This document shows positions 2,161-61,909 of a stretch of DNA of 64,000 nt, in pieces (the first letter of the stretch is position 1; every line of letters begins with the position of its first letter). The translations under genes were made by a program, and so were the position numbers. The DNA is taken from NCBI GenBank assembly GCA_048320885.1, contig JBLWFJ010000001.1:1413642-1477641 (forward strand), given 5' to 3'. The DNA is from Nannocystaceae bacterium ST9 (GTDB lineage: Bacteria > Myxococcota_A > Polyangia > Nannocystales > Nannocystaceae). Below the pieces are notes generated by a model. The model did no database searches and was not told the DNA's origin. It saw only the letters and a list, made by a program, of their open reading frames with translations.

Positions 2161-2192
2161 GCGGCCCGACGGTATCACGCGAACTCGGTAGA

Positions 2193-5100
2193 GTGCGGGG
2201 CATGAACGGCATGAACGGCATGACCGTCGACGAGTTGGTCCGACGCCTCGATCGCCTCGACCACACCGAGCGGCTCGCCGAGCTGATCGCCCATGGCCGC
2301 GCCCTCTCGCCGACCGACGCCGAAGCGCTGAGCCGGGCGCTCTTCGCCGGCGACGTGCACCGTCGACTGCTGGCACTTCAGCTCGCCCAGCTGGTCTCGA
2401 CCGGCGCCCGACCGAGCGCGCTGATCTGGCAGGCGCTCGACGATCGCTCGCTCGCGGTCCGCAGCCTGGCCGCCAAGCTGGTCGGCCGCGACGCCGACGC
2501 GGTCCCGATCGCGCTGCTCGATCGGCTCGACGCCGCCTCGCTCTCGGTGTTGTTTCGCCGGGTCGTCCGCCAGGGTCGAGCCGCGATCGCCGAGCCGCTG
2601 GTCGAGGGCCTGATCGCCCGCGAGCGCATGGCCGAGGCTTGCTACCTGCTGCCGGTCTGTCGGGTCGAGGCGATCCTCGGCTGGCTCGACGCGGTCGCCT
2701 GGCCCGAGACGATCTGGATCCGCCTGGCCAAGTACCGCGCCCCCCTGCTGATCGATCGGATCACCGCGGCCTTCGCCGCGACGCCGGAGCGACCCGACCT
2801 GATCTGGCGACGCTTCCACCCGGGCGTGTGGGCCCGGCTGGCCCGACGCGAGCCGGCGACCCTGGCCGCGTGGATCGATCGCCACGCCGACGCCGAGTCG
2901 CTGCCCCACGAGCTGGCCTCCGCGCTGCCCCACCTGGTCCGCTGGTCGCCGACGTGGATCGCCGGCGTGCTCGGAGCTCGCGTCGCCTGGGTCGCGCAGA
3001 TCGGGCTGCCCAAGGGCCTGGCCGCCCGCGCGAGCGAGGTCGACGACGCGACCCTGGCCCCGCTCGTCCGCGGGCTCGCACGCTCGGCCCCGCACCTGCT
3101 CGGCCAGCTGCTCGCGCGCATGCCCTACCCGCGCCGCGCGAGCCTGTTCGCGCTGGCGATCGAGCCGCTCGAGACCGCGAGGATCGAGTGGCCGACCAGC
3201 CTGCTCGCGGTGCTGCCGACGGCGCTGCGCGATCGCGAGGCCGCCCGCATGCTCGCGCTGACCCGAGCCCGCACCGACGCGACCTGGCGGCGCGAGCTGC
3301 TGGGCCTGCGATCGATCGTCGCCGCTCGGCCCGAGCTCGAGCGCGAGGGCCAGTCTGCGCAGGCCAGCGATCGCGCCGAGGCCCACGCCGCGCTGGTTCG
3401 CAGCAGCTGGCGCTCGCGCGCCGGCATGCCCGAGACGCTCGCGTGGCTCAAGCGGATCCGCAACGAGCAAGACCCGGTGCGGCTCGCCGTCATGATCGCG
3501 CTCGCCGAGGCGCCCGGTCACCACTTCGACGATCCCGGCGCGCTCGATCTCGTGGTCGCGCCGATCTTCGACGCCCGCGACACCTCGTACGCCACGCGGC
3601 ACCAGGTCGCCCGGCTCGCGCATCGGCTGATGGTCGCCCGCGCGACCGAGCCGAGCTCGCCGATGTTCGAGTTCGGGATCAGCCTGCTCGAGCGGCTGGC
3701 CGGACAAGCCGGCACGCCCGATCTGCCCAACCTCGAGCGCAACCTCCCGCGCGGCGCCGAGCAGGCGATCGTCGACGCGCTCTTGCCTTGGGCCGAGGCC
3801 GCGGGCGAGCGCCGGCAAGAAGATCACCTGGTCCGGCTGTGGACCTCGCTCGGCAAGCGAGCGTGGAAGGTCGCGGCGCTCGGCGAGCGGATCGCCCACC
3901 TGATCTGGCAGGGCAGCAAGGCCGGCGCGCCCTACCGCGTCGCGCACTGGCTGGCCGATCCTCGCACCCGCGACGCGCGAGTCCGCGAGCTGGTCAAGCG
4001 CGATCGCTCGGCGCTCTACCTGCACCCGGTGTTCGAGCACTGCCACCGTCGCCGCCAGTCCCTGCTCGTCGATCGCTTCGCTACCACGGCCCCGCGCGGC
4101 CGCTTTCACGACGGCAAGGTCGTGCTCATCCCGATCGTCGATCGCGGGTTCGAGCGCTGGCCGAGCGAGCTGCAGCGCCAGTACGTCGAGTTGATCGCGC
4201 TGGCCGAGATCGAGCCCAAGCACTTCTCGCAGACCCGCGCCGCGCTGATCTCGATGCGCGCGCGCGTGCCGATCACGAGGGTCGAGGACTTCGCCGACGC
4301 GCTGGCCTCGAGCGAGGTGCCCGTGCGAGAGGCCGCGCTCGCGGCCCTGGTCTGGACCGACGATCCCGCGCCCGCGCTGGCGATCCTGCTCGATCACCTC
4401 GAGGGCGATCAGGCCAGGGTCGCGATGTATGCGATGCCGCGCCTGGCTCGCCTGATCGCCCGCGACCGCTTCGTCGACGCGCTCGCCGAGCTGCTCGCCC
4501 GGCCCAAGCTCAAGGTCACCGTGCACAAGGAGGCCCTGCGCCTGCTCGGCCAGCTCGCGACTCCCCGAGCGATCGCGCTGCTTCGCCAGACCTGGACGCA
4601 GCCGCTGCATCGCGACGTCCGGATCGCCACGCTGCACGCCGCGCGATCGATCCTCAGCCAGGCCGACGCATGGACGATCCTCGCCGAGGCGGCCCGCGAC
4701 GGCGACGCCGACATCGTCCGCGCCCTCGTCGAGGTCCCGCTGATCACGATCGCCGAGCGCCACCGCGGCCGCTACCTCGAGGTGATGCGAGCGGTCGTCG
4801 ATCATGCCAGCCCGATCGCTCGCGCGGCCCTGTTCGCGACGCTGGTCGGCGGCTGGTCGAGCGTCGATCCACGCGTGGCCGTCGAGATCGCCACCAAGGT
4901 GATCGCCCGCATGGATCCCAGCGATCCTTGGCGAGCGGCCGCGCAGGTGGTGGCCGAGGGCGCGCGCTCGAGCGACGTGCACGCCCGGATCGAAGCGTCG
5001 ATCGCCGAGCTGATCGCGGCCGCCGAGCGAGACGTCGCGCCCGCGGGCGAGCGCGATCGCATCGCGCATCAGCGGCTGGTCGGCGTGATCGAGGGACTCG

Positions 5101-11924: not shown

Positions 11925-13172
11925 TCACGCGCGTGGCGCGTCCAGCCACGCGCCCACCCCCTTGCGAACCAACAGCTTGCCGAGCATCAGCTGGTCGTCT
12001 TCGCCCAGTTGGGCGAACGTTCGCACGACCACGGGGCCTTCGGCGCCACAGAGCTGTCGAAGCGAAGCCTCGAACTTGGCCGGCAACAAGAGCGCGTGAT
12101 TGTTGGCCTCGATTCGGCAAGCGGGAAGCCGACCTGGACCCTCGAGCACGCGAATCAAGGGACGGTCGCCCAGCGCGACTCGGCTGTCCAACGTCATCGC
12201 GTCGAGGTCGGCGAGCGCCGCGAGCCGACCCGCGGCCATGCAGTATTGCTGACGCCGGAGATCGTCGTGCAACCGCGCGACACCGGCCTCGGGCTCGAGG
12301 TGCGCCAACGAGCGCTCCAACCCCGCCCGGGTCGCCGCGATGGCGAGCTCGTCCTCGTCGGCCGCAGCGTCGAGGCGAGGCGAAAACAGCGCTCGACGGA
12401 GGGCCGGGTCTTCGGCGATCTCCGCGAGCGCACGATCGAACGCCCGCGAGACCGCGTCGTAGACCGTGAAGGGCCTGACCCCGATCGCCACGTGAATGCT
12501 GACCCCCTCGCTTCGCTCCGCAAAATGAGGAAACCCGCGAGGGATGTAGAGAGTGTCTCCGGGGCCCAACTCCACGTCGAGCACCAGATCGTCGGCGCTG
12601 GTTCGTGCCACACCGAAATTTCGCTGGTGTGGAAGCGGGGCCACGAAGCGCGGTGCGTAGACCTTCCAGCGCTTGCGACCGCGGACCTGCAGGGCGAACA
12701 CGTCGACGATGTCGTAGTGGAGATCGAGCGCCGACTCGGAGGCGGACGTCGGCGTGACGATCACGTGGCCCTCGGTGCAGGAGTTGAACACTCCCGCGAT
12801 CGTCCTGGCGAGCGCACAGATCCGCGGAAAGTTGGTCTCGGTGAAGGTCAACACGAGCGAAGCGCCACGCGCGAACTCGTCGAGCACCCGCTCGGTGTCC
12901 AACTCGTTGGCCAGGTGCTTGTTCGGTGAATAATGACGCGTGGACAGGTACTGTCGTGGTGCGATGGATCCCTCGCGCGACAACCTCAGGGTCGCGCGAT
13001 TGAAAGCGCCAATCAGCAACGCTCGCTCGATCTCGTCGAGATCGACGAGATCACTGAACCGCGAGGGATCGTCGCGGACGATGTGGCGTGCTCGTCGCTC
13101 CCAGAGCGTCGCAGTGAACTCCGCCAAAGTCACCGGCGCCAATAGCTTGGCGATTGCGTCGGCGTCGGTCAT
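11925..13172 (-). CDS. JmjC-domain / cupin-4 family 2OG-Fe(II) oxygenase (RoxA/YcfD-like protein hydroxylase)
   Basis: ATG at 13172 overlaps the upstream stop (ATGA). The motif LDLHYDIVDVFALQVRGRKRWKVY matches the cupin_4 HxD..DVF..Q..G.K.W core. Confidence 0.8.
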   Translation of the reverse strand: MTDADAIAKLLAPVTLAEFTATLWERRARHIVRDDPSRFSDLVDLDEIERALLIGAFNRATLRLSREGSIAPRQYLSTRHYSPNKHLANELDTERVLDEFARGASLVLTFTETNFPRICALARTIAGVFNSCTEGHVIVTPTSASESALDLHYDIVDVFALQVRGRKRWKVYAPRFVAPLPHQRNFGVARTSADDLVLDVELGPGDTLYIPRGFPHFAERSEGVSIHVAIGVRPFTVYDAVSRAFDRALAEIAEDPALRRALFSPRLDAAADEDELAIAATRAGLERSLAHLEPEAGVARLHDDLRRQQYCMAAGRLAALADLDAMTLDSRVALGDRPLIRVLEGPGRLPACRIEANNHALLLPAKFEASLRQLCGAEGPVVVRTFAQLGEDDQLMLGKLLVRKGVGAWLDAPRA

Positions 13173-24002: not shown

Positions 24003-27000
24003 GTGGACGTGGACGGGACGCTCGAGTCGACGAGCGATGGCGAAGACGAATCGGAGCTCGAGTCGTCGTCGAGCGACGAGTCCTCGCACGCGTCCTCGAT
24101 CGACGACTCGGGCGTCGACACCTCGGCCGACTCGACCCGCACGCCCCGACCCGACGTGTTCGATCTGCACGTGGGCGAGCTGCTCGACGGCTATCGACTC
24201 GACCAACTGATCGGCGCAGGCGGGATGGGTCGAGTGTTCGAAGCTCGGCACGTCCGCAGCGGCGAGCTGGTGGCGCTCAAGCTGCTCAGTTGCAGCGATC
24301 CCGGCCATCTGGCCCGGTTCAAGCGCGAATTCCGGGCACTGGCCAGGGTCGAGCACGCCAACCTGATCCGGCTCGGGGAGCTGCGCGTGCTGTCCGAGAC
24401 GCGCGCCTACATCACGATGGAACGGATCCGCGGGCGGCCCTTCGTCGACTGGGTTCGCAGGCGAACACCGCCCGGTCGACTGCCCAACTTGCTGCGCCTG
24501 CAACGAGCGATGCGTCAGCTGATCGCCGGTGCGTCGCGACTGCACCACGAGCAGTGTGTCCATCGCGACCTCAAGCCCTCGAACGTGCTGATCACCGACG
24601 AGGGCCGCGTGGTCATCCTCGACTTCGGCCTGATCCGCGAGGCCCAATCCGGGACGCCCACGCTCACGCGCGATGGCCAAGTGTTGGGGACCCCGGCGTA
24701 CATGGCCCCGGAACAGGCCAGTCGCGAGCACGACGTGAGCCCGGCCTCCGACTGGTACGCGGTCGGGGTGATGCTCTTCGAGTGCCTGACCGGCGCGCGG
24801 CCCTTCGATGGTTCGGCGGCGGCGATCATGATCGCCAAGCGGACCCGCGACGCGCCCGATCCCGGCACGATGGTCTACGGGCTGCCCGAGCCGCTGCGCG
24901 AGCTCTGCGTCCGATTGCTGGCCCGCGAGGCCGCCGCCCGGCCGAGCGAGGGCGAGCTGATCGCGGTGTTCGGCGAGGTCTCGGGGCCCTTGCCCGCCGC
25001 GCTCGAGCAGCCCGCCTTCGTCGGTCGCGCGCGCGAGCTCGAGTGTCTGCGCGAGGCGAGGCGCGAGGTTCAGGCCAGCGCGAGCCCGGTAGTCGTGCGG
25101 ATCGTCGGCGCGCCCGGGCTCGGCAAGTCGACGCTGGTCCGCCACTACTTTCGTGAGCTCGTCGATCAGCCCGAGGTCACCTCGCTGCGCTGTCGCTGCC
25201 TCGAGCGCGAGTCGCTGCCCTACAAGGGCATCGACGGGATCGTCGACTCGCTCGCCGTGTTGATCCGTCGGATGTCCGAGGTCGAGGCCGCGGCCCTGCA
25301 ACCGCGCCAGCTCGGCGCGCTCGCTCGGATCTTCCCGGCCTTGGCCGGCGCTTGGGGCCCGCGTCCGCGCACGCTCGACGCCGAGCCCAAGGAGCTGCGC
25401 CGGATGGGTGGCGCTGCGCTACGCGAGGTGTTTCAGCGGCTCGCCGATCGCCGCCAACTGATCGTCGCGATCGACGACTTCCAGTGGGCCGACATCGACA
25501 GCGCTCGGCTCTTGCTCGAGATCCTCGGCCCGCCCGACCCGCCGGCGATCCTGCTGATCCTCGGCCACACCGACGCGCGCGGCGAGGCGCTCGAGCTGCT
25601 CGATCGCTACGACGCGTTCGCCGACATCCGCGTCGACGAGATCCAGCTCGGCCCGCTCTCGCGCGACGAAGCCGAGCAGCTCGTGCATGCCCTGACCCCT
25701 GGCGACGAGCTCGGCGACGAGCAGCTCGAGCAGGTGGTTCGGCGCAGCGAGGGCAGCCCCTTGCTGGTCCACCAGCTCGCGCGTGTCGACGTCGGCGTGG
25801 CGCTCGACGACGCGGCCGATCGCCTGATCGTCCGGCGCGTGCTCGAGCTGCCGGCCGCGCAACGCCAGCTGCTCGAGCAGATCGCGGTGGCCTCGGGGCC
25901 CTTGTCGCGCGCCGCGATCGACTCGCTGATCGAGGCGAGCTCGGTCGACCTCGCGGCCCTGGTCGAGAGCGGCCTGGTCCGCCGCGAGCCGCTCGCGAGC
26001 GGCGAGCAGCTCGAGTGCGCCCACGCCCGGATCCGCGAGCTGGTCGTCGCCGAGCTGACCCCGAACGAGCTGAGCCGACGCCACCGCGAGCTGGCCAAGG
26101 TGCTCGAGCAGCACGGCGCCGAGCCGGAGGCGATCGCCGATCACTGGGAGCAGGGTCGCCGGCCCCAGCACGCCGCCCACTGGGCCGAGCAGGCCGCCCG
26201 GCAAGCCGCGAGCATGCTGGCCTTCGCCCGCGCGGCCGCGGCCTATCGCCGGGCCCTGCGGGCGCTCGGCAACCTGACGATCGGCCCGGTCGACGAGCTG
26301 CGCGAGCAACTGGCAGAGCAGCTGATCGCGCTGGGCGAGGTCCGCGATGCCGCCGATCTGCTGGTCGAGCTCGCGACCCGAGCCGCGCCCGAGCGAGCCT
26401 CGGCGCTGCGTCGGCGCGTGGCCTGGCTGCTGCTCGAAGACGGCCGGATCGAAGAGGCGTTCCCGCTGATCGGAGAGCAGCTCGAGCAGGTCGGCGAGGC
26501 GTTGCCCAGCGAGCGCTGGCGGATCGTGCTCGGGCTGGTCCGCGACCGCGCGGCGCTGGCCCTGCGCGGGCTCGAGTTCGAGCCCCGAGCCGAGGCCGAG
26601 ATCGACCCCGATCGGCTGGCGCGGGTCGACACGCTCAGCACCTTCGTCACCTTGCTCTCGCAGTACGGCCACCACCCGCGCGCGGCGTTGATCACCTCGG
26701 CCTTGCGCGCCCGCCTGCTCCGGCTCGCGCTCGCGGCCGGCGAGCCCGGCCGGGTCGCCTACTCGCTCGCCCACGAGGGCTTGATCCTCGCGGCCTCGGG
26801 CAACACCGAGCTCGGCGATCGCCTGGTCGAGCGCGGCCGTCGACTGCTGCCCGAGCCGAGCGCCGACTCGACCGCGGCGCTGCGAGTCCGCCACGTCGAG
26901 GCGATGCTCTACTTCATGACCGGTCGCTGGCCGCGGGCGAGCGAGCGGATCGACGCGCTGGTCGAGCTCAGCGAGCACAGCGCGAGCGGCTGGCTGCGCC

Positions 27001-49098: not shown

Positions 49099-52000
49099 AT
49101 GGCCGACGAGCAGGACGACGAGCGCAAGACCAAACCCCTCGAGCAGGCGGGCAAGCGCGCGCGCGCGTGGGCCAAGAACCTCGAGCTGCCGAGCATCGAG
49201 CTGCGCTCGGTCGGCGACGCGCTCGGCGGCTTCGCTCGCAAGGTCCGCGATCTCGCGGTCGAGGTCAGCGAGAGCGTCGGCGTGCCCGAGGTGGTCCGCG
49301 ACGCGGCCGAGCAGTCTCGGGCGCTGCGCCTGGCCGGCGAGTTCGAGCGCGCCAACGAGCTGCTGCGTCCCCTGCTCGACGGCCACGCCGGCGAGCCCAC
49401 GCTGCTGACCGCGCTGCTGCTGACCGCGGTCCACGAGCGGCTGGTCGGCGATCGCCTGCCGAGCAAGCTCGAGATCCTGCGCGAGCACGCCAGTCGACTC
49501 GACCCCAAGAAGCCGCTGCCGGCCATCCATCTGCTCGACGCCGTCGAGGCGCTCGCGACCGACGACCGACCCGACAAGGCCCTCGACGCGCTGCGGCGGG
49601 CGACCCGGGCGATCGACAAGCTCGGCTCGCTCGACCTCGCCGAGGGTCGGCTGCTCGGTCACTTGCTCGCGGCGGCGGCCCACCGGCGGCTCGGCTCGCC
49701 CGATCGATCGATCCGCGAGATTCGCAAGGCCGCGGCCGCGCTGCCGAGCAACGCCGGCCCGGCGCTGCGCCGGATGACGCTGACGCTCGGGGTCGATCAG
49801 CTGCTCGCCGACGGACGGATCGGCGAGGCCGAGCGATGGATCCGATCGGCCCAGCAGCAGCGCGCCGATCGGGCCCAGCCGACGATCGATCCCGACGCCG
49901 AGCCCGACGCGCCCGCGAGCGCGCCCCGACCTTCGCCGCCGCAAGAGCCCAGCGAGCTCGAGCGGGCCCTGCTGGCCCGCGTGTTGGCGGTCCGCGGCGA
50001 GCGAGAGCAGGCGCTCGCGCTGCTGGCCACGCTGCCGCGCGAGGGCGAGCTGTTCGCCGAGGTCCGCGTGCGCGTGCTGATCATGGTCGGGGATCCGAGC
50101 GCCGCGCGAGCCGAGGCGCTGCAACACCTCCAGCGCGACGCGGCCCACCCCGAGCGCCTGCGGCTGTGGGCGCTGGCCGAGCAACGCACGTGGCGAGCCG
50201 GCGGCGGGCCGCCGAGCGGATCGAACGGGCCGGTGATCCAAGCCCTGGTTCGCGCGCTCGAGCTGGCGCCCGCGCACGGCCGCGCCGCCCAGGCACAAGA
50301 GCTCGCCCACGTCGCGCTGCTCGCCGACGATCTCTCCGATCCGGTCCAGCGCGTGCTCGCGGCGGTCCGTCGCGACTTGCGAGACGCGATCGGCGAAGAG
50401 CTGCACCTGCATCGGATCCGCGCGGCGCTGGTCCGGGCCCGCGGCTCGGGCGTGCTCGATCCCGAGGTCGCGGCCGAGTTCGTCGGTCCGCCCTTTCGCC
50501 TGCGTGCCCGGCCCGAGCTGACCGAGGTGCTGGGTCCCGACGAGCTCAGCCCGCTGCGCGATCCCTTGCGCCGCGAGGCGCTGGTCGCCGGTCAGCGCCA
50601 GCTCGCCGCCGCCGAGCGAACCATGCTGGCCGGGCCCGAGCACCTCGACGCGGTCGAGCGAGCGCTGGTCGCCGCGCTGATCGAGGATCCCGAGCTCGGC
50701 GTGGCCCGCCGCAAGTTGGCCGCGCTGACCCGCCCGCGCGCCGGCGAGCGGCTCGAAGACCTGCTCGCCCACGCGACCGAGCTGCTGGCCAAGCTGCCCG
50801 ACGAGCTGCTCGGGGCCTCGCTGCGCCCGGCCGGCGAGGCCCTGCGTCGGGTGATCGCCGCGCGCGAGCGGCTGGCTCGGCCGCTGACGATCGCTATCAT
50901 GGGCGAGTTCTCGGCCGGCAAGAGCACCTTCGTCAACGCGCTGCTCGGCGAGGCCGTCGCGCCGATGGGCGTGCTGCCGACGACCAACACGATCAACGTG
51001 TTTCGCCGCGGCACCGGTCGCGGCGCGCGGGTCCACTATCGCGACGGCAGCATCGCGACGGTCAGCGCGGCCGAGCTCGACGCCTACCTGCGCAACCTCG
51101 ACGACAAGGAGGCCGATCGGATCCGCCACCTCGAGATCGATCGGGTCGGCGAGCGGATGGGCGACGCCGCGGTCGTCGACACGCCCGGCCTCAACGCGCT
51201 CGACGACTACCACGAGAAGGTCGCCCGCGAGTTCATCGAAGAGGCCGACGCGGTGGTCTGGATCTTCTCGGCGACCCAGGGCGGGACCGCGACCGAGGCC
51301 GGGATCCTCCGCGAGCTGCGAGCCGGCGGCCGCAAGGTGCTCGGCGTGCTCAACAAGGTCGACGTGCTCGACTCCGACGACGAGCGGCGCGAGCTGGCCG
51401 ACTACCTGCGCGAGCAGCTGGGCCCCGTGCTGGTCGAGGTGCTGCCGCTCTCGGCCAGCGCCGCGCTCTCGCATCGCTCGGGCAAGATCGCCGGCCCGGA
51501 CCCCTTCGCCCACGTCGACGACGCGCTCGAGCGCCACTTCTTGCAGCACGCCCGCGAGCTCAAGGCCGAGCTGACCAAGCGGCGGCTGAGCGAGGCGCTG
51601 ATCCTGGCCAAGACCACGCTCGAGGCCGCGGTCGCCGAGCTCGAGTCGCGCGGCGCCGACGAGCCGCTCGCCGCCGCGCTGGCCCGCGCCACCGCGGCGC
51701 TCGGCAAGTTCTCCGAGGATCTCCACGAGGCCCTGCTCGGGCTCGACGACGTGCTGACCCGCGAGGCGCTGGCGATCGGGCTGGTCGAGGCCGGCGAGGG
51801 CGTGCGCCGCAAGGTCGATCGCCAGGACGCCGAGTACCTCGAAGCCACGCTCGAGGACGTCGCGCTGCGAGTCCTGCAAGATCGCCTGGCCGCGCTGACC
51901 GGCGAGCACGAGGTGCTGGCCGGCCTGCTGGTCGAGCGCCTGGTCCCCTGGGCGCGCGGCTACCTGGCCGGGCTCTCGGCCCGCGGGTTCGCCAGCGATC

Positions 52001-52248
52001 TGATCTCGACCCACGGACGCGCGGCCACCCGCGGCGAGCAAGCCCTGCGCGACAGCCTGCGCGCGGCCGTGCGACCGCTGGCCGACGACTGGCGACTCGC
52101 GACCCGCGAGCTGTTCCGCGAGCTCGAGCGGGCGCTCGCGCGGGCTCGCCAGCGCTCGAGCAGCGCGCCGCGAGCCGAGGCCCTGCGCCTGCGGACCTCG
52201 GCGCTGGCCGGGATCGAGGGCCTGCTCGCTACGCTCGAGCAGCCCTGA
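49099..52248 (+). CDS. Bacterial dynamin-like GTPase, second of the pair, with a ~560-aa helical N-terminal extension
   Basis: G1 GEFSAGKSTFVNALLG, G3 DTPGLN and NKVD (G4). The giant antisense ORF 46615..52041 is an artefact. Confidence 0.85.
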   Translation: MADEQDDERKTKPLEQAGKRARAWAKNLELPSIELRSVGDALGGFARKVRDLAVEVSESVGVPEVVRDAAEQSRALRLAGEFERANELLRPLLDGHAGEPTLLTALLLTAVHERLVGDRLPSKLEILREHASRLDPKKPLPAIHLLDAVEALATDDRPDKALDALRRATRAIDKLGSLDLAEGRLLGHLLAAAAHRRLGSPDRSIREIRKAAAALPSNAGPALRRMTLTLGVDQLLADGRIGEAERWIRSAQQQRADRAQPTIDPDAEPDAPASAPRPSPPQEPSELERALLARVLAVRGEREQALALLATLPREGELFAEVRVRVLIMVGDPSAARAEALQHLQRDAAHPERLRLWALAEQRTWRAGGGPPSGSNGPVIQALVRALELAPAHGRAAQAQELAHVALLADDLSDPVQRVLAAVRRDLRDAIGEELHLHRIRAALVRARGSGVLDPEVAAEFVGPPFRLRARPELTEVLGPDELSPLRDPLRREALVAGQRQLAAAERTMLAGPEHLDAVERALVAALIEDPELGVARRKLAALTRPRAGERLEDLLAHATELLAKLPDELLGASLRPAGEALRRVIAARERLARPLTIAIMGEFSAGKSTFVNALLGEAVAPMGVLPTTNTINVFRRGTGRGARVHYRDGSIATVSAAELDAYLRNLDDKEADRIRHLEIDRVGERMGDAAVVDTPGLNALDDYHEKVAREFIEEADAVVWIFSATQGGTATEAGILRELRAGGRKVLGVLNKVDVLDSDDERRELADYLREQLGPVLVEVLPLSASAALSHRSGKIAGPDPFAHVDDALERHFLQHARELKAELTKRRLSEALILAKTTLEAAVAELESRGADEPLAAALARATAALGKFSEDLHEALLGLDDVLTREALAIGLVEAGEGVRRKVDRQDAEYLEATLEDVALRVLQDRLAALTGEHEVLAGLLVERLVPWARGYLAGLSARGFASDLISTHGRAATRGEQALRDSLRAAVRPLADDWRLATRELFRELERALARARQRSSSAPRAEALRLRTSALAGIEGLLATLEQP

Positions 52249-52277: not shown

Positions 52278-52937
52278 ATGAGCGACGACCACGACGAAGA
52301 CATCACCGAAGACGAGCTCGCCGACGCCGTCGGCTCGCCCGGTCGGCGGATGTCGCCGGCGTTGATGGTGTTCGGGCTCGGGCTCTTCGCCTGCGCGGCG
52401 CTGCCCCTGACCCCGAGCGGGACCAGCTTCCTCGGCCTGCTGCTCGCCGCGTTCGGCCGCAGCCCGCTCGAGGGCCTGATGATGGCGCTCGGGTTCGGGG
52501 CGCCGTTCTGGTACGGCTTGGTCGTCGCGATCGGGGCCTGGCCCAAGGGTCCGCTCGGCACCCACGCGCTGCGACAGATCCTGATCAGCAACGCCAGCTT
52601 GCTGCACGGTCAGCTCGCCCTGGTCGCATGGTTGCTGTGGCGCGACGGCCTCGGCGTGCTGCCCTCGGCCCTGCTCGGGTTCGCGGTCGTGAGCGGCGGG
52701 TTCTTCATCGTCCAGCACGCCAGCGCGAGCGCGGCCGAAGGCGGCGTCGACGAGCAGGGCCGCCGACACGAAGGCATGGACCCGCGCTGGCTGATCCGCT
52801 GGACCGCGACCGTGCTGGTCGGCGTGTGCGGCTGGCTGCGCCTGCAGCTGCTCGGCGGCCTCGCGTTCGGCTGGGCCGTCGAAGCCGCGCTGGCCTGCAG
52901 CGTGGCGATCGCCGTCGTGCTCACCCGCCGTCGCTAG
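52278..52937 (+). CDS. Multi-TM membrane protein, function unknown
   Basis: ATG at 52278 (MSDDHDEDITEDE...), followed by six hydrophobic helices. Confidence 0.55.
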   Translation: MSDDHDEDITEDELADAVGSPGRRMSPALMVFGLGLFACAALPLTPSGTSFLGLLLAAFGRSPLEGLMMALGFGAPFWYGLVVAIGAWPKGPLGTHALRQILISNASLLHGQLALVAWLLWRDGLGVLPSALLGFAVVSGGFFIVQHASASAAEGGVDEQGRRHEGMDPRWLIRWTATVLVGVCGWLRLQLLGGLAFGWAVEAALACSVAIAVVLTRRR

Positions 52938-53535
52938 CTATGGGAGGCCGTTCCGCCGGCCTCCCCCGTGCCGGCGGAGCCGTCACGGGTCCTCCTCCTC
53001 GCAAGCGCTGCGCGCCTGTTCGCTTCGCCTTCGCTCGCTCATGTCGCTCGATGCGCTGGCTTTGGAAGACCTGACGATCCCCATCGCGCAGCGAGTGTCC
53101 GCCATCGCGCGACAGCCCACCGAGCGACGGGCCCCCAACGATGACAGCAACGGTTCGCGAACCGTTCGCGAAGTGACGCCACCCCATTCCCGAGTTCGAT
53201 CCGAGCGAGCGAACGCGAGCGAACGCAAAGCGAACGAGCGCGATGTCTGGACGGCCCTCGAGCGAAGGAATGCGCGAGCGAACGCGACGCGAACGAGCGC
53301 GGCGCCTGGAAGGCCTCCGAGCGAAGGAATGAGCGAGCGAACGCGAAGCGAACAGGCCCGAAGGGCCTGCGAGGAGGAGGACCCGTGACGGCTCCGCCGG
53401 CACGGGGGAGGGCGGCGGAACGCCCTCCCTCAAACCAACCAAACAGGCCCGAAGGGCCTGCCAGGAGGAGGACCCGTGACGGCTCCGCCGGCACGGGGGA
53501 GGGCGGCGGAACGCCCTCCCTCAAACCAACCCATC
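52938..53535. repeat. Cluster of GC-rich palindromic repeat elements. Copy A (52938-53042, forward) and copy B (~53328-53430, inverted) flank degenerate ~60-nt gcgaacg-rich tandem units; copy C (53441-53522) is a direct repeat of B
   Basis: RC of A aligns with B nearly base-for-base (atgagcgagcgaa.gcgaagcgaacagg...gaggaggaggacccgtgacggctccgccggcacggggga...). The core hairpin is GGGAGG[G/C]CG-TTCCGC-CG[C/G]CCTCCC. All ORFs across this region are spurious. Confidence 0.8.
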
Positions 53536-53609: not shown

Positions 53610-54566
53610 ATGCTGTTGCGATTTCCAGAGTCCCCCGACCGGCGGACGTCCACCCCGAGCGAGAGTGGCGACGCCACCGCCGACTTGCCGGTGGTCGAGC
53701 GCGCGCTCCAGGTGCAATTCGTCGGGGGCTTCGAGGGCCTCTCGCTGGTCACGATCGCCTGCGATTCGCAGCCGGCCTGGCTGCTCGAAGAGATCGCCGC
53801 GATCCTCGAGATCACCAGCGACGCCGCGCTCGAGCATCTGGCCGCGCGCTGGCACGACCACTGCCCGAGCGACGCGCTGATCCGGCTCGAGGGTGGAGTC
53901 CGCCGCGAGCTGGTCGACAAGCTCGACCGCGCCCACGTCGTGCTCGCGCGCGGCCGCAAGGCGCTGCTGCTGGTTCGGATGCCGGCGATCGACGAGCTGG
54001 TCGCGCGGCTCGACGTGCCGGCCGCTCGCCGGCTGCGGACTCACCTGCGCGAGCGCGTGGTCCCGGAGTTTCACGCCTGGGAGCGGGCCGCGAGGGCGCT
54101 CGAGCAGCCGCTGCTCTCGGCCGACGCGGTGACGATCGCCGGCAACCGACTCGAGTTCGAACGCCGCTGCTTCGAGGCCGCGGTGCTCGAGCGACTGCTC
54201 GATCGACTCGAGCGTGAGGGCTTGGTCGAGAGCGATCGCCTGGTCGCGTTTCGGGTCGTGGCCAGCGAGCTCGCGCTCGGAGCCCGGCTCGCCGACTTCG
54301 CCGAGTCGCTCGCCCACGGCTGGTCGACGCCCACGCAGATCGCCGAGCGCTGGCACGACACCAGCCCGCTGCGGGTCGGTCGGGTGATCGGCTCGCTCGG
54401 GCTCAAGGGCAGCCGCGCGCACTCGCGGGCGCTGCTCAACAAGGCTCGCGGCCACGACCGGACGGTCGTGTCGCACGTGTACAGCCCGGCCGCGGTCGCG
54501 TTGATCGAACGCGAGCTGCGCAGCCGTGGCCATCGCCGGATCGATCCCGAAGACGCGCTCGCCTGA
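53610..54566 (+). CDS. Bro-N domain (prophage antirepressor-like) protein
   Basis: The N-terminus LQVQFVGGFEGLSLVTIACDSQPAWLLEEIAAILEI fits the Bro-N F..F...iR....g.pWF.a.dva..L pattern. The C-terminal part is helical and uncharacterised. Confidence 0.55.
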   Translation: MLLRFPESPDRRTSTPSESGDATADLPVVERALQVQFVGGFEGLSLVTIACDSQPAWLLEEIAAILEITSDAALEHLAARWHDHCPSDALIRLEGGVRRELVDKLDRAHVVLARGRKALLLVRMPAIDELVARLDVPAARRLRTHLRERVVPEFHAWERAARALEQPLLSADAVTIAGNRLEFERRCFEAAVLERLLDRLEREGLVESDRLVAFRVVASELALGARLADFAESLAHGWSTPTQIAERWHDTSPLRVGRVIGSLGLKGSRAHSRALLNKARGHDRTVVSHVYSPAAVALIERELRSRGHRRIDPEDALA

Positions 54567-56862: not shown

Positions 56863-57050
56863 CGGTCCCGGGCGGGGGGACACGGTGCCCCGACGCGCGG
56901 GCCGGGGGCAAGCCGCCCGCCGGCGCTTGTCTGGCCCAGATCATCGAATTGCGGCGCCCGCGATTCCCGCATGGCTCGGTTTTGCGACATGCACGCACTG
57001 GCGGCGCCGGCGATGGGCGCCGACCCCCGCCCGTGATAGGTTCACGCCGC

Positions 57051-58085
57051 ATGGCGCGGGTGCCCGAGAAGATCGGCCATTACGAGGTCAAGGGTCTGCT
57101 CGGCAAAGGGGCGATGGGTGAGGTGTACGAGGGCCTCGACCCCAGCCTCAACCGCCGCGTCGCGCTGAAGGTCCTCGGTCGCAAGCACCAGGAGTCGACC
57201 GAGTTCAAGAACCGCTTCCTCCGCGAGGGCCGAGCGCTGGCGGCGATGAACCACAACAACGTGGTTCAGGTGTACTTCATCGGCGAGTTCGAGGGCCGGC
57301 CCTTCCTGGCCATGGAGTTCCTCGACGGCGACGACATCGGCGGGCTGATCAAGAAGAACGGCCCGCTCTACCCCGGCGACGCGGCCGAGGTCGTGCGGCA
57401 GGCCGCGGTCGGGCTGCTCGAGGCCAAGCGGGTCGGCGTGGTCCACCGCGACGTCAAGCCATCGAACCTGGTCGTGACCAAGACCGGCGAGGTCAAGGTC
57501 ACCGACTTCGGCCTGGCCAAGGCGCTGCAAGAAGACCTGTCGATCACCGCGACCGGCGTGTTCGTCGGCACGCCCGACTACCTCGCGCCCGAGCAGGCGA
57601 TGGGCGAAGAGGTCGACTCGAGCGCCGACGTCTACGCGCTCGGTTGCTCGCTCTACCACATGTGCACGGGCAGCCCGCCCTTCCGCAAGGGCGGCAGCGA
57701 CGACCACTACACCGCCGTCGTCCGCCGTCACCTCAAGGCCGAGCGCCCGGTCCTCAAGCAGCAGATCCCGACCTTCGACGAGCCGCTCAGCGATCTGTGC
57801 CGACGCATGATGAGCCGCCGGCCCGACGTCCGGCCCACGCTCGAAGAGCTGATCGACTGCCTGCCCGAGATCTCCTCGCGACTCGGCGGTCGGATCCCCC
57901 CGCGCCACGCCGCCGTCGAGCTGATCTCGTCGCCGCCGCCCAACCCGGCCGAGCCGGCGCCCTCGAAGTCGGAGCCCGAGAAGCCCGAGAACCCGCTCGG
58001 CGGACGGACGCTCGCGATCGCGATCGGCGTGGGGATCGCGATCGGGGTCGTCGGCTCGTTGCTGGTCATGCTGTTGGCTAATTAG
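57051..58085 (+). CDS. Ser/Thr protein kinase with a C-terminal TM anchor
   Basis: Kinase motifs GKGAMGEVYEG, ALKVL, HRDVKPSN, DFG and APE. C-terminal helix LAIAIGVGIAIGVVGSLLVMLLAN. The upstream part of ORF 56949.. is junk. Confidence 0.85.
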   Translation: MARVPEKIGHYEVKGLLGKGAMGEVYEGLDPSLNRRVALKVLGRKHQESTEFKNRFLREGRALAAMNHNNVVQVYFIGEFEGRPFLAMEFLDGDDIGGLIKKNGPLYPGDAAEVVRQAAVGLLEAKRVGVVHRDVKPSNLVVTKTGEVKVTDFGLAKALQEDLSITATGVFVGTPDYLAPEQAMGEEVDSSADVYALGCSLYHMCTGSPPFRKGGSDDHYTAVVRRHLKAERPVLKQQIPTFDEPLSDLCRRMMSRRPDVRPTLEELIDCLPEISSRLGGRIPPRHAAVELISSPPPNPAEPAPSKSEPEKPENPLGGRTLAIAIGVGIAIGVVGSLLVMLLAN

Positions 58086-58260
58086 TCATAGGGAGGGCGT
58101 TCCGCCGCCCTCCCCCGCTTCGCGGGGCCCCCTCCTCACTGCCCTAGCGGGCCGCTCACTCCGGTTCGCGGTCGGTTGCGGGCGTCTCCTTGCTGCCGCT
58201 CACTCTGGTTCGTGGTCAAGCGCGTCCTCGCTGAATTCTGGAGGCGCTCGCGGGCCGCGG
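58086..58260. repeat. Dispersed copy (D) of the palindromic repeat-element family, immediately 3' of the kinase stop codon
   Basis: The stretch ggagggcgttccgccgccctcccccgcttcgcggggccccctcctcactgccct..cgggccgctcactccggttcgcggtcggttgcgg is about 100 nt near-identical to copy E at 60950. Confidence 0.8.
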
Positions 58261-58291
58261 ACGATCGGCGTGGCGTGATAGCTTCGCGGGC

Positions 58292-59134
58292 GTGAGCGGC
58301 TTCGATCCCAATTGGCATCCCGAGGGGGCCGTGTGTGCCAAGGCGCTGCGCGAGCGGTTGCCTGGGCTCGCGCCGGTCGACTGGCTGATCATCGGTGGCT
58401 CGGGCATCGGGCGGCCGCTGGTCGAGCAGGGCGAGCATGGGCTCGGGCTTCGCGTGCTGCATTCGGTCGCGCTGGCCGAGCTCGGGTTGCCGGCGCCGAG
58501 CGTGCCGGGGCACGGCAGCGCGCTGGTGATCGGCGAGCTCGATCGCGAGGGCGGCGGGGCGCCGATCCGCGTGGCGGTGCAGACCGGGCGCATCCATCCT
58601 TACGAGGGGCACTCGGTCGGCCTGGTCTGCGCGCCGCTCGGGGCGATGTTCGAGGTCGGGGTCGGTCGCGTGCTGCTGACGGCGGCGGTCGGCGGGGTCG
58701 ATCCCATGCTGCGCGTCGGGGCGATCGTCAGCTTCCGCGATCAGATGGCCCTCTTCGCTCCGACGCCGCTGCGTGGGGCGGCGTTCGTCGACTGCTCGAA
58801 CCTCTACGATCGCGAGCTTCGCAAGGCGCTGCGCCAGCAGGCCGGCGATCCCTCGATCCTGCCCGAGGTCGTGTACGGCCACGCTCGCGGCCCGCAGTAC
58901 GAGAGCCCGGCCGAGGTCGCGGCGCTGCGCCTGCTCGGCGCCGACGTGGTCGGGATGTCGACGACCTACGAGGCGATCCTGGCCGCGGCCCATCGCGTGC
59001 CCTGCTGTGGGCTCGGCGTGGTCACCAACGCGGCCGGCAGCGAGGCGCTCTCGCACGTCGAGGTCGAGCGCGAGTCGATCAAGGCGCGCGGGCGCCTGGT
59101 CGCGATCCTCCGCAAGCTGATCCAGAGCGCGTGA
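58292..59134 (+). CDS. Purine nucleoside phosphorylase family protein (PunA/MtnP-type)
   Basis: GTG start. The phosphate-binding N-terminus (LIIGGSGIG) and the C-terminal VVTNAAG signature are typical of the PNP/MTAP family. Confidence 0.75.
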   Translation: MSGFDPNWHPEGAVCAKALRERLPGLAPVDWLIIGGSGIGRPLVEQGEHGLGLRVLHSVALAELGLPAPSVPGHGSALVIGELDREGGGAPIRVAVQTGRIHPYEGHSVGLVCAPLGAMFEVGVGRVLLTAAVGGVDPMLRVGAIVSFRDQMALFAPTPLRGAAFVDCSNLYDRELRKALRQQAGDPSILPEVVYGHARGPQYESPAEVAALRLLGADVVGMSTTYEAILAAAHRVPCCGLGVVTNAAGSEALSHVEVERESIKARGRLVAILRKLIQSA

Positions 59135-59904
59135 TGGGCGACCTCGGCAAGACCACTCGAACCGCGTTGATCACCGGAGCCTCGAGCGGGATCGGGGCCG
59201 CGCTCGCGCGAGCGCTCGCTCGCCAGGGCATCGAGGTGGTGATCGCGGCTCGCCGCGAGGCCGCGCTGCGCGAGCTCGCCTCCACGATCGAGGCCGAGGG
59301 CGGCAAGGCCCGCGTGCTCGCGCTCGACGTCCGCGAGCCCGAAGCGACGGTCGAGGCGATCCAGGCGATCGACGCAGAGCTCGGTGGACTCGATCTGGTC
59401 GTCGCCAACGCGGGCGTCGGTCAGCAGCGCTGGGCCGGCAAGCTCGACTGGCAGGCGTGCAGCCAGGTCATCGACGTCAACGTGCGGGGTGCCGTCGCCA
59501 CCTTGGTCGCGGTGCTGCCGAAGATGGTCGAGCGCGGCCGCGGGCGATTGGTCGGGATCTCGAGCGTCGCGCAGTACCGCGGCCTGCCCAAGAACGCGGC
59601 CTACAGCGCGAGCAAGGCGTTCCTCAGCACCTTCCTCGAGAGCCTGCGCGTCGACCTGCGCCGGACCGGCGTCAGCGTGACCGACGTGCGCCCAGGCTTC
59701 GTCGACACGCCGCTGAGCGCCGCGGTCCCGCGCAAGCCCTTCGAGATCGACGCCGACGCGGCCGCCCGCCTGATCGTCGACGCGGTCGATCGTCGCCGTC
59801 GCGTGCTGGTGTTCCCGCTGCCGATGCGGATGTTGGGGGCGCTGCTGACCGTGATGCCGGCCGCGATCTACGAGCCGATCGTCGGCGGCGCGACCAAAAA
59901 GTAG
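59134..59904 (+). CDS. SDR-family short-chain dehydrogenase/reductase
   Basis: TGASSGIG cofactor motif, NAG, and the YSASK catalytic tetrad. The ATG overlaps the upstream stop. Confidence 0.85.
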   Translation: MGDLGKTTRTALITGASSGIGAALARALARQGIEVVIAARREAALRELASTIEAEGGKARVLALDVREPEATVEAIQAIDAELGGLDLVVANAGVGQQRWAGKLDWQACSQVIDVNVRGAVATLVAVLPKMVERGRGRLVGISSVAQYRGLPKNAAYSASKAFLSTFLESLRVDLRRTGVSVTDVRPGFVDTPLSAAVPRKPFEIDADAAARLIVDAVDRRRRVLVFPLPMRMLGALLTVMPAAIYEPIVGGATKK

Positions 59905-60063
59905 GTGGGGATCGCGCCGGCCCGCCTGCGAGGCCTGCGAGTTCTCTCCTGACGACGCGAGAATTCACTGCTTGCCCGGTTCGGCGGCGCTGGCTATAAC
60001 GTGCACGAGCGTTGAAAACGACTTTCAATGCTTCCTCCAGGTCCGCCGTCCCCGAGAGTCTGC

Positions 60064-60258
60064 ATGCTCGTCTGCCTCTGCAAGGGTGTCTCCGACCGCC
60101 GCATCACCGAAGAGATCCGCCGTGGCGCCTGCACGCTGCAAGCGATCCAAGACGGCTGCCAGGCGGGCACGGACTGCAAGAGCTGTGTTCGGCAGATCCG
60201 TCAGATGCTCGCCGGCCAGGGCCACGCTCGCCAGGACGCCGGCGATCTCGGCGGCTGA
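60064..60258 (+). CDS. bfd: Bacterioferritin-associated ferredoxin (BFD-like [2Fe-2S] domain)
   Basis: MLVCLCKGVSDRRITEEIRRGACTLQAIQDGCQAGTDCKSC carries the C.C...C..C arrangement and lies directly upstream of bfr. Confidence 0.7.
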   Translation: MLVCLCKGVSDRRITEEIRRGACTLQAIQDGCQAGTDCKSCVRQIRQMLAGQGHARQDAGDLGG

Positions 60259-60417
60259 GCCCGCTGGCGCTGGATGAAAGCGACTTTCATCCCCGCGCCG
60301 ACTCGGGCCGAAGCTCGCGAGGCGCCCGCGAGTTGAAAGTGGCAGTCGGCTTCGTTGCGCCGACCCATCGTCACGCAGCGATTGCAGCCGCAGCGTCGCT
60401 TGCCTAGGGTGAGCGCG

Positions 60418-60888
60418 ATGAAGGGCAAGCCAGAGATCATCGATCTGCTCAACGAGGTACTGACCGCGGAGCTCACCGCCATCAATCAGTACTTCATCCA
60501 CGCCAAGATGCTGCAGAACTGGGGCCTGCTGCGTCTCGCGGGCAAGGTCCGCGCCGAGTCGATCGACGAAATGAAGCACGCCGACGCACTGATCGAGCGC
60601 ATCTTGTATCTGGAGGGCATCCCCAACCTCCAGCGGCTCGGCAAGGTCAACGTCGGCGAGACGCCCAAGGAGCAGCTCCAGCTCGACTTGGCCGTCGAGC
60701 ACGAGGCGCTCGCTCGCTTCAATCGCGGCGTCGCGCTCTGCCGCGACCTCGGTGACAACGGCAGCCGCGAGCTGCTCGAGCGAATGCTGATCTCCGAAGA
60801 GGAGCACACCGATTGGCTCGAGACTCAGCTCGACTTGATCGCTCGGCTCGGCGAGGTCCAGTACCTCGCGCAGCAGCTCGGAGGTTGA
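60418..60888 (+). CDS. bfr: Bacterioferritin
   Basis: [36 protein letters not shown]... is the canonical Bfr N-terminus, including the haem-ligand Met region. Confidence 0.9.
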
Positions 60889-60899
60889 GCAGACCCTCC

Positions 60900-61075
60900 G
60901 CGAACGAGCGAGCGAACGCGATCGCGGACAGCCCGAAGCGGTTTTATGGAGGGCGTTCCGCCGCCCTCCCCCGCTTCGCGGGGCCCCCTCCTCACTGCCC
61001 TCTCGGGCCGCTCACTCCGGTTCGCGGTCGGTTGCGGAGGTCTCTGAATTTCTGGAGGGGGTTCCGCCCTCGCTA
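60900..61075. repeat. Dispersed copy (E) of the palindromic repeat-element family, immediately 3' of the bfr stop
   Basis: Contains both the gagcgagcgaacgcga end-motif and the GGAGGGCG-TTCCGC-CGCCCTCC hairpin module. Confidence 0.8.
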
Positions 61076-61081
61076 GCGTTC

Positions 61082-61510
61082 TCACAGCACGCTGTAGCGA
61101 GTGCCGCGAGCCTTGCCGTGCCAGGTGACCAGCTCGGCCTCGATCAGGCGCGCGACCGCCTTGCGAACCTGCAGGGACGTCCCGTTGATGTGGTTGCGGA
61201 TCTCGGTCGCCGACACGGGCTCTTCGGACGCGCGGATGAACTCCAGCACGCGCGCATCGTAGTCGCGCCGGCCGGCGGCGGTCCGCGTGTTGACGTCCTC
61301 CTCTTCGGCCCGGCTGCGCGCCAGCTCGTCCATGTCGGCGTGCAGCGACTCGCGACCGGCGCGAATGACTTCGCCGACGGTCACGCTCGAGAGCAGGCCG
61401 GAGAACTGGCCGCGGCTGAGCTTCGAGAGCTCGGCGAGCGTCATTTCGGGGTGGGCGCGGATCAAGTCGAGGAAGACCGTGCGCTGCACGTCCTTCACCG
61501 CCTCGGACAT
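61082..61510 (-). CDS. Winged-helix DNA-binding protein, hypothetical
   Basis: ATG at 61510 (MSEAVKDVQRTVFLDLIRAHPEMTLAELSKLS...). The C-terminal ATEIRNHINGTSLQVRKAVARLIEAELV is wHTH-like. Confidence 0.5.
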   Translation of the reverse strand: MSEAVKDVQRTVFLDLIRAHPEMTLAELSKLSRGQFSGLLSSVTVGEVIRAGRESLHADMDELARSRAEEEDVNTRTAAGRRDYDARVLEFIRASEEPVSATEIRNHINGTSLQVRKAVARLIEAELVTWHGKARGTRYSVL

Positions 61511-61909
61511 TTCCCGTTCGAAACTCGACACACGGACAAGATAGCAGAGCGCCTGGGTGAGCACTATCCCCCCGCGTGGATCGATGGGGGATATACATAA
61601 CACTCCCAACCCTGGTGATCGGCAAACCGCCGCGAGCGCCCCTGGAACGTTCGATTGCGGCAAACCGACCAGGTGTCGTACATCTCGGCACCTGCTGAAA
61701 TGAACATGATTGTTCGTCGAGCGAGTACCGAGATGCGCCCTGGAAGCCGGCGCCACTGGTCCGATTCGAGCATTGCCGCCGGTTCGCCTGGAGTGTGATC
61801 AATCCCCCGCGCGCGCTTTGGCCCCACGATCACGTGCGTTAGTACACGTATTCACAGTAAGCGGCCCCGGGGTCGGCAGCGCCGCCCCGAGGCCCCGACT
61901 CGCGCTCGG

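Follow-up and report, generated by a model that had tools for sequence, protein, structure and literature searches.

The 64,000-nt stretch of the Nannocystaceae bacterium ST9 genome analyzed here (contig JBLWFJ010000001.1, positions 1,413,642 to 1,477,641; hereafter, the window) contains similar GC-rich hairpins shortly downstream of the stop codons of unrelated genes, which raises the question of whether these hairpins come from a local duplication, a mobile repeat family or regulatory RNA modules of the host. The original prediction described them as dispersed copies of a single family akin to repetitive extragenic palindromic (REP) sequences and bacterial interspersed mosaic elements (BIMEs). 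That observation is essentially right, and the comparison with REP/BIME is partly supported, with respect to behavior. The reading that we favor, and consider likely, is that of a non-coding, non-autonomous, propagating repeat family that resides at gene 3' ends, is confined, as far as seen, to the Nannocystaceae (Myxococcota), which are marine myxobacteria, and is presumably inserted by an enzyme that acts in trans and makes staggered cuts.

A modular repeat with five copies in the window

The 22-nt core GGAGGGCGTTCCGCCGCCCTCC occurs five times in the window (GC content 69%), at 52943 (+; with 2 compensatory changes), 53407 (-), 53498 (-), 58092 (+) and 60948 (+), compared to 0.03 occurrences expected from shuffled sequences. 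A covariance model (CM) of the conserved head of the repeat yields exactly five matches, and no partial ones, in the 64 kb: A (+), B (-), C (-), D (+) and E (+), all located between 52.9 and 61.0 kb. The dense occurrence claimed originally, three or more copies in 8 kb, is borne out by these five heads in 8.1 kb, the minus-strand copies B and C having been overlooked earlier. The near-identity of D and E over about 100 nt was also described correctly, with 95% identity over 100 nt (58089-58188 vs 60945-61044). A and B form an inverted repeat (I1) of 101 nt with 93% identity, and C is a tandem copy of B, with a 91-nt period and 98% identity (Tandem Repeats Finder, TRF).

Alignment of the window copies with those found elsewhere defines a conserved unit that consists of a three-hairpin head of 75-90 nt followed by tails. 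The head comprises, in this order, a T-rich leader, hairpin 1 (HP1), CCC, hairpin 2 (HP2), a C-rich spacer and hairpin 3 (HP3). The leader, of about 10 nt, has the consensus CTRGTYTTTK and frequently includes TAG. HP1, which alone is a 22-26 nt palindrome, is nearly invariant (GGAGGGCG-TTCCGC-CGCCCTCC; stem of 8-9 bp, loop TTCCGC), and its stem variants GGAGGCCG/CGGCCTCC, GGAGGCCC/GGGCCTCC and GGAGGCCA/TGGCCTCC preserve the base pairing as well as, in essence, the loop; the 9-bp stem initially ascribed to all copies is found in A and D, whereas that of E has 8 bp. In HP2, the pairing is retained despite sequence variation, with a 10-bp stem in at least 7 sequence versions, commonly with a central C.T mismatch, and an alternative short form with a 5-6 bp stem. 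The C-rich spacer that precedes HP3 reads CCCCCTCCTC, also given as GCCCCCTCCTCGC, and HP3 has a stem of 4-5 bp and a TTC-type loop. The tail module is tandemly amplified, with 1-4 units per element, and comes in two types: type 1, TGTTCGCTTCGCGTTCGCTCGCTCAT(GACGGGTTTCGGGGGGCGTCTTGGG), that is, GTTCGCTCGCTCAT-type, accompanies the long HP2 (copies A, B and C), and type 2, GCCGCTCACTCYGGTTCGCGGTC, or GCCGCTCACTCYGGTTCGYGGTC-type, accompanies the short HP2 (copies D and E). The two subtypes proposed originally are thus real, but they share the C-rich spacer and HP3 in addition to the first hairpin. No open reading frame (ORF) with a Pfam domain was detected inside the elements of the window, and the window has no Rfam match at the gathering score or at E<=1.

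The elements of the window and their junctions are listed below, with L033 and L034 denoting two metagenome contigs that are syntenic with it.

52930-52934: site A, left copy of the 5-bp target-site duplication (GTCGC), with which the sense part of the membrane-protein ORF ends; GTCGC is present once in the L033 and L034 orthologs and twice in the window
52935-53042 (+): element A, type 1, 108 nt, CM score 94.8 bits; the TAG (52935-52937) of its leader TAGCTATG is the current stop codon; HP1 at 52943-52964 (variant GGAGGCCG..CGGCCTCC), long HP2, spacer TCCTCCTCCTCGC, HP3 and one tail unit (53017-53042)
53043-53074 (+): right GTCGC copy (53043-53047) and displaced original ORF end, in frame to the ancestral TGA at 53072-53074, by alignment with L033 and L034
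53203-53351 (-): tail of element B, about 2.4 tandem 59-nt units of the type GTTCGCGTCGCGTTCGCTCGCGCAT-TCCTTCGCTCG.., from motif hits and a TRF array (53214-53353, period 59, 87% matches)
53352-53438 (-): head B, type 1, 98.4 bits; HP1 at 53407-53428
53443-53529 (-): head C, type 1, head-only, in tandem with B, 96.2 bits; HP1 at 53498-53519
58082-58156 (+): head D, type 2, 68 bits; leader TAGTCATAG (58083-58091), which holds the kinase stop TAG and a second in-frame TAG; HP1 at 58092-58113, short HP2 (CCCCGC-TTC-GCGGGG), spacer CCCCCTCCTCAC and HP3 (GCCC-TAGC-GGGC)
58151-58250 (+): tail of D, two type-2 units, from 58151 and 58195, followed by the 3' motif CTGAATTCTGGAGG (58231-58244); right boundary at about 58250, with homology to the empty sites resuming at about 58251 (GGGCCGCG..)
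60897-60943 (-): remnant of a type-1 element in the opposite orientation, reverse-complement tail and part of HP3; aligns with the minus-oriented elements of L034 at the same site, motif match at 60906-60922
60938-61012 (+): head E, type 2, 62.8 bits; HP1 at 60948-60969
61007-61076 (+): tail of E, one type-2 unit (61007-61029..), the 3' motif CTGAATTTCTGGAGG (61044-61058) and a degenerate HP1-like hairpin with a terminal CTAG (61054-61076); ends 5 nt short of the stop of the convergent winged-helix gene

Copy E had originally been started at 60900; the segment from about 60897 to 60943 is the oppositely oriented remnant, and E proper follows it.

Spread beyond the locus

The family is dispersed over genomes and replicons and is polymorphic at orthologous sites. 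A single genome scan identified HP1 on at least 13 contigs of the metagenome-assembled genome (MAG) ST_AS_metabat.41 (Nannocystaceae) and on at least 14 contigs of the MAG SOY_6_C_metabat_27, and 2 HP1 sites among the matches listed for Paraliomyxa miuraensis. Across MAGs, the copies are frequently located at contig ends, that is, repeats of this family break the assemblies. A metagenome scan added about 25 Nannocystaceae-type copies, and a scan of viral contigs produced chance matches only, without the hairpin.

In ST9 itself, another contig (2,242,935 bp) encodes an ImuB-like Y-family polymerase (P0121) with an in-frame element-derived segment at approximately residues 438-500. The insert of about 40 amino acids (38 of them element-derived) lies in a variable linker, includes ERANAKRTGAQRLRGGGPGTAPPARGRAAERPPSKP, which corresponds to the type-1 head read on the reverse strand, and is missing from the homologs, so a copy can sit in-frame in a tolerant protein linker. 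The match was the sole hit obtained when the elements were translated in six frames and used as queries, a procedure that is unreliable as a copy census. The location of this gene on a contig other than that of the window (6,975,145 bp) implies that the ST9 genome comprises two or more large contigs or replicons.

These findings bear directly on the possibility of a segmental duplication limited to this locus. It would account for the fact that all five heads of the window lie within 8.1 kb, with no head detected by the covariance model in the other 56 kb, and restriction to the locus was indeed named at the outset as the outcome that would speak against a mobile family. The presence of the family in other genomes, in metagenomes and on the second ST9 contig excludes such local duplication; furthermore, A, D and E have unrelated flanking sequences, and the syntenic relatives lack these copies. 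We accordingly regard a purely local origin as extremely improbable.

Filled and empty orthologous sites

Besides L033 and L034 (83% and 79% identity of the purine-nucleoside phosphorylase, PNP, respectively), the syntenic relatives include L152, from the SOY MAG, and a more distant Pseudenhygromyxa locus, L154. Site D is empty in L033, L034, L152 and L154, where the spacers between the kinase and PNP genes are 13, 39, 26 and 5 nt long, respectively. The kinase gene ends with ...N-TGA in L033, L034 and L154, and with ...N-TAG-TC in L152; in the window, the same ...N-TAG-TC is followed by the element.

Site E is empty in L152, where the stops of bfr and the convergent gene are 1 nt apart (TAG C CTA). 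In L033, it contains a solo perfect hairpin (12583-12616; AATGGGAGGGCG-GAA-CGCCCTCCCATT) in which the HP1 stem is closed by a shortened loop and all other modules are missing; it may represent what is left of an element or its minimal form. In L034, there are two type-1 elements on the opposite strand that start 7 nt after the stop of the convergent gene, whereas in the window the minus-strand remnant is followed by the plus-strand type-2 copy E. Thus, one spacer is occupied in at least three different ways, and this occupation occurred independently in different lineages.

At site A, the orthologous ORFs end with ...SRRPTFG-TGA and ...SRRSTRA-TGA, followed by TCCCCATCG, whereas the ORF in the window ends with ...TRRR-TAG. 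Immediately after the 108-nt element, the window continues with the second GTCGC copy, then eight codons in frame, and then a TGA that precedes CGATCCCCATCG, so that the ancestral TGA has moved about 140 nt downstream. The junctions and the displaced TGA indicate an insertion into the final codons of the ORF that duplicated 5 bp and left the element to provide the stop codon now in use. A similar displacement is seen between iscS and iscU, a site at which the ST_AS genome has an element and four relatives (4 of the 5 loci; spacers of 13-30 nt) have none, with the ancestral TGA+CCTTTGGGG shifted to the right junction. The 3' end of a peptidase-M24 gene is filled in L034, with CTAGTC flanking the element on both sides, and empty in L033. 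Finally, two population variants of the same locus, L014 (approximately 4160-4457, -) and L122 (5203-5490, +), differ in the number of tail units (3 vs 4) and in their leaders (CTAGTCTTTA vs CTAGCCTTCA), a variation similar to that of variable-number tandem repeats that could be used for strain typing.

Position relative to genes and stop codons

Gene calls in the window, obtained from the periodicity of third-position GC content (GC3) and Pfam, place the elements among the following genes.

49099-52248 (+): second of two dynamin-like genes
stop TAG 52935-52937 (+): membrane-protein gene
53610-54566 (+): gene without known function
between the previous gene and the kinase gene (-): DnaB-like gene
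56949-58085 (+): Ser/Thr kinase, stop TAG 58083-58085
58292-59134 (+): PNP
between PNP and bfr: SDR gene
60418-60888 (+): bfr, stop TGA 60886-60888
61082-61756 (-): winged-helix (wHTH) gene, convergent with bfr, stop 61082-61084 (TCA)

Copies of the family are located at gene 3' ends, mainly in the sense orientation with respect to the upstream gene. Among 51 non-redundant heads, for which the strand of the flanks was called heuristically, by periodicity, the upstream coding strand is sense in 30 cases and antisense in 7. The spacers are convergent in 14 cases, co-directional with a sense head in 10, and co-directional with an antisense head in 6 (B, C and a tandem artefact among them), and none is divergent. 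About 15 heads directly adjoin a co-oriented ORF. The placement of HP1 0-15 nt past a stop codon, as first described, applies to A and D (5 and 6 nt after TAG, respectively) but not to E, which follows the bfr TGA at a distance of 59 nt, with the remnant in between. Such proximity is partly trivial because the native spacers at the empty sites are just 1-39 nt long. The stops within 7 nt of HP1 include 6 TAG, 2 TAA and 2-3 TGA, against a background of about 75-80% TGA and about 20% TAG. Recoding of the TAG by a structure resembling a pyrrolysine or selenocysteine insertion sequence (PYLIS or SECIS) was ruled out, given that the element follows unrelated genes and that orthologs without it end at the same residue. 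For genome annotation, element-borne TAGs that truncate or end real genes, such as the membrane-protein gene ending at 52937, deserve attention, as do copies within ORFs, of which the ST9 ImuB-like protein is an example.

A short duplication, of about 5 bp and frequently including the stop codon, borders several copies. The 5-bp flanks match at 5 of 5 positions at A (GTCGC), L034:18386, L014 and L122, at 4 of 5 in L018 and L006, and at 3 of 5 in L079, with no match at D. CTAG tetranucleotides are infrequent in the loci, with 1 per 3.9 kb. Of the six elements with CTAG in the leader, four carry another at their far end, 115-206 nt downstream, which provides the convergent gene on the opposite strand with its TAG. 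The simplest reading of the 5-bp flanks is a duplication of about that length, frequently spanning the stop codon; the flanks could also reflect terminal CTAGs that belong to the element or insertion at a specific CTAG(TC) sequence, given that D lacks a duplication on the right and the empty site of L152 already has TAGTC.

Hairpin covariation and possible functions

Covariation supports all three helices. Across 49 heads, 95.9% of the cells are paired, compared to 45-59% with slid partners, 14 of the 22 pairs show double changes, and the observed score was reached in 0 of 500 shuffles. Part of this signal reflects lineage-specific master copies.

The covarying hairpins are compatible with modules that evolved in the host as terminators, 3' untranslated region (UTR) stabilizers or intercistronic processing sites and spread by selection rather than by transposition, and so are the sense orientation at gene ends and the presence of copies inside operons, namely between iscS and iscU and upstream of the genes for an acyl-CoA dehydrogenase and a carboxyltransferase subunit, where they must be transcribed through or into. 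In addition, as read from the sequence, the spacer CCCCCTCCTC and the GGAGGG of HP1 look like anti-Shine-Dalgarno and Shine-Dalgarno motifs, respectively. The orthologous operons, however, do without the element: 4 of the 5 iscS-iscU loci and 3-4 relatives at D and E are empty. Nor would such modules be expected to occur in antisense orientation (B and C) or in-frame inside an ORF, to be flanked by target duplications, or to truncate an ORF as at site A; the hairpins are not followed by a U-tract, and the Rfam search was negative even at the permissive E-value. Taken together, these observations make a host-evolved RNA module very unlikely as the source of the family.

Resident elements could still be functional. 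A terminator or mRNA-stabilizer role, as suggested originally by analogy with REPs, is conceivable; relatives manage without the element at the same sites. A terminator consensus scan of 10 kb detected 5 sites, with 3.5 expected, one of which falls in an element, where it combines HP3 of C with the T-rich leader of B (53462-53442, minus strand); the same scan detected no sigma-70-like promoter. An intrinsic (Rho-independent) terminator consists of a GC hairpin directly followed by a U-tract, an arrangement that the elements do not display.

Proposed insertion and maintenance of the elements

The evidence described above, namely dispersal, filled and empty sites, short flanking duplications, and a copy that entered the last codons of an ORF and donated its stop, is best accommodated by the propagating, non-autonomous family that we favor. 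A plausible course of events would start with insertion by a staggered-cut enzyme, DDE-like or similar, that is supplied in trans and recognizes the hairpins; the surviving insertions would be those in tiny neutral spacers after stop codons, where the resident elements would be co-transcribed as 3'-UTR or intercistronic RNA. With a predicted stability of about -20 kcal/mol, HP1 located a few nucleotides past the stop would be expected to hinder 3' exonucleases, by analogy with REPs. It may also perturb translation termination: Liang, Rudd and Deutscher reportedly found in 2015 that this process is affected in E. coli by REPs no more than 15 nt from the stop codon. In a high-GC organism with terminators devoid of U-tracts, the family might serve as a test case for the influence of hairpins a few nucleotides past stops on translation termination and mRNA decay.

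Several observations weigh against this scenario. No mobilizing gene was found, and neither were terminal inverted repeats: the 5' leader and HP1 share only CTAG with the 3' tail ends, and that in some copies. At site D, there is no duplication on the right, and the TAGTC on the left is already present in the empty site of L152. The five window copies are crowded into 8 kb, as pointed out above. The stem pairs (932 Watson-Crick, 6 G.U and 4 A.C in 978 cells) show no excess of G.U over A.C, and stems that are almost purely Watson-Crick are compatible with a constraint on RNA as well as on DNA hairpins; the copies may be young rather than under selection at the RNA level. The minimum free energies of whole-element RNAs are not significantly below those of shuffled sequences (z = -0.55, -0.98 and -2.03), although HP1 is predicted every time. 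No hairpin is followed by a U-tract; HP1 is succeeded by CCCC, and the T-run is 5' of it.

Some of the same features are what one would expect from genuine REP or REPIN elements moved through single-stranded hairpin intermediates by a REP-associated tyrosine transposase (RAYT; HUH/Y1). The scarcity of G.U pairs fits DNA hairpins, and the location of D directly 3' of a TAGTC that also exists in the empty site is the expectation for target-specific HUH insertion without duplication. HP1, with its covarying stem and kept loop, is a conserved hairpin of the imperfect-palindrome type, the inverted cluster of A, B and C recalls a BIME or REPIN, the extragenic 3'-end distribution is that of REPs, and donation of a TAG stop by REP termini has been described for GTAG REPs (PMC3733652). 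Against this, the tetranucleotides GTAG and CGTC are found directly before HP1 in 1 and 0 of 49 heads, respectively, the unit is a three-hairpin composite of 75-110 nt or more with tandem tails rather than a 20-40 nt palindrome, and the clean 5-bp duplication at A, along with several CTAG-containing duplications, is unexpected for HUH transposition. A rough tblastn probe with an approximate RAYT query produced nothing in the approximately 330 kb of window and loci, which is weak evidence because RAYTs are single-copy genes. On balance, RAYT-driven REPs seem unlikely here.

A derivation from IS200/IS605 insertion sequences (IS), as a palindrome-associated transposable element (PATE) or a TnpB/IscB guide-RNA scaffold, was considered and rejected, as no tnpA or tnpB ORF adjoins any head and site A is duplicated; the sole hint toward IS200/IS605-type insertion is the TAGTC 5' of D, present in the empty site as well. 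There is also a small chance that the family represents a distinct class of hairpin-guided elements without inverted repeats that target stop-codon regions, duplicate or donate the stop (with CTAG serving convergent genes on both strands) and are mobilized by an enzyme not yet recognized. Should the mobilizing enzyme of the favored propagating family prove to be neither a RAYT nor a classical DDE transposase, it would be of wider interest.

Related hairpins and other features of the window

A further head variant, at L012:102-240 and L070:44-181 in two different genomes, leads into a conserved 3' module of another kind (..CCCCAGCTCAACCAAYCGGGYGTGAGCGYGTGTTCTGGGG..GGCGTGCCAAC) and contains no ORF; downstream of these heads, we found no autonomous partner, only a shared 140-nt non-coding module.

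The 22-nt hairpin (GGAGGGCC-TTCCGC-GGCCCTCC or the exact GGAGGGCGTTCCGCCGCCCTCC) is also central in two other, unrelated but conserved, repeat families, denoted B and C (distinct from the window copies of the same letters), in contigs of lower GC content (60-66%), for example, peat/bog Ga01815xx. Repeat family B (L041, L043, L049, L055, L057, L064-L078, L087, L092, L096-L099, L103, L104, L111, L125 and others) is MITE-like (miniature inverted-repeat transposable element), with a length of about 215-300 nt and ends CTWAGTRCAGCATTTC.. that form long terminal hairpins; one of its loci, L097, includes a 16S gene at 8129-9691. Repeat family C is represented in L035, L042, L047, L051 (copies at 4398, 5725 and 7550), L059, L105, L109, L114, L120 and L129. 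The loci of both families have no Rfam match, and Pfam detected nothing in the ORFs between the family C copies in L051. The likeness of the hairpins may be a coincidence or an effect of ascertainment, the loop having been fixed in the search pattern; if true, a shared hairpin might point to a factor that is specific for such hairpins and widespread across phyla, be it a protein of transposition or a host protein that binds RNA or DNA.

Elsewhere in the window, an ORF at 43972-45681 (+) combines DUF222 with an HNH endonuclease domain, an architecture resembling REP13E12, in a region with a local GC content of about 0.61-0.66, and contains inverted repeats (44175-44294 and 44962-45084) of about 120 nt that are 87% complementary. 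An array of 13 copies of an 18-nt tandem repeat (1312-1628) encodes the Lys/Ala-rich, histone-H1-like C-terminal tail (AAKKKP)n of the ORF 1339-2376 (-). The 98-nt 'tRNA-???' with a two-base anticodon predicted by ARAGORN at 26500-26597 is probably a false positive.

Comparison with known repeat systems

The literature searched, on REP, RAYT and MITE repeats in myxobacteria and on strain ST9, contains no description of such repeats, so the family is apparently undescribed, although ordinary in kind, that is, a set of intergenic hairpin repeats of the REP/MITE-like variety. With it, the Nannocystaceae, under-studied myxobacteria with large genomes, gain a REP-like system. Its interest is moderate, and the instructive features are the donation of stop codons, the insertion into ORF ends and a protein linker, and the independent re-occupation of one spacer.

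The family resembles the gammaproteobacterial REP/BIME of E. coli and Pseudomonas and the SMAG repeats of Stenotrophomonas, GTAG-tagged REPs included, in that all are GC-rich hairpin repeats, extragenic, located at gene 3' ends in spacers that are convergent (14 here) or co-directional (16) and avoid divergent ones (0), clustered in direct or inverted orientation, differently occupying the same spacer in related genomes, and able to supply a TAG stop from their termini. The original comparison holds for this placement and polymorphism but not for the sequence signature and the unit: the Nannocystaceae family has no conserved GTAG/CGTC (the single GTAG is in L018, and the other heads have TTTG, TTTT, TATG, ATAG or TTAG), and the single palindrome of REPs is replaced by a composite of the three-hairpin head and tandem tail modules. 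The apparent short target duplications are another difference and speak against mobilization of the RAYT/HUH type; the rough probe detected no RAYT in the DNA sampled, and the host phylum, Myxococcota, differs as well. REPs typically number more than 100 copies per genome.

With MITEs such as Correia/NEMIS, ERIC and RUP, the family shares its non-coding nature, a length of 100-300 nt, dispersal in multiple copies with filled and empty orthologous sites, apparent short duplications flanking several copies, probable co-transcription with neighboring genes, and overlap with ORF ends or in-frame location within ORFs. In contrast to MITEs, it has no terminal inverted repeats, its ends being unlike each other (a hairpin head and a repetitive tail), and no parent IS is known for it.

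A parallel to the modular build comes from the BOX elements of Streptococcus pneumoniae and the mycobacterial interspersed repetitive units (MIRU) of Mycobacterium, in which one module is present in variable number (boxB or MIRU, comparable to the tail units), the location is intercistronic, the orientation is biased with respect to transcription, and the copy number varies between strains, as it does between L014 and L122. The sequences are unrelated to those of the Nannocystaceae family; BOX is an element of low-GC Firmicutes, and MIRU lacks dyad symmetry and overlaps stop and start codons via small ORFs. Thus, the Nannocystaceae repeats are neither canonical REP/BIME nor canonical MITEs, although in their behavior they resemble both.

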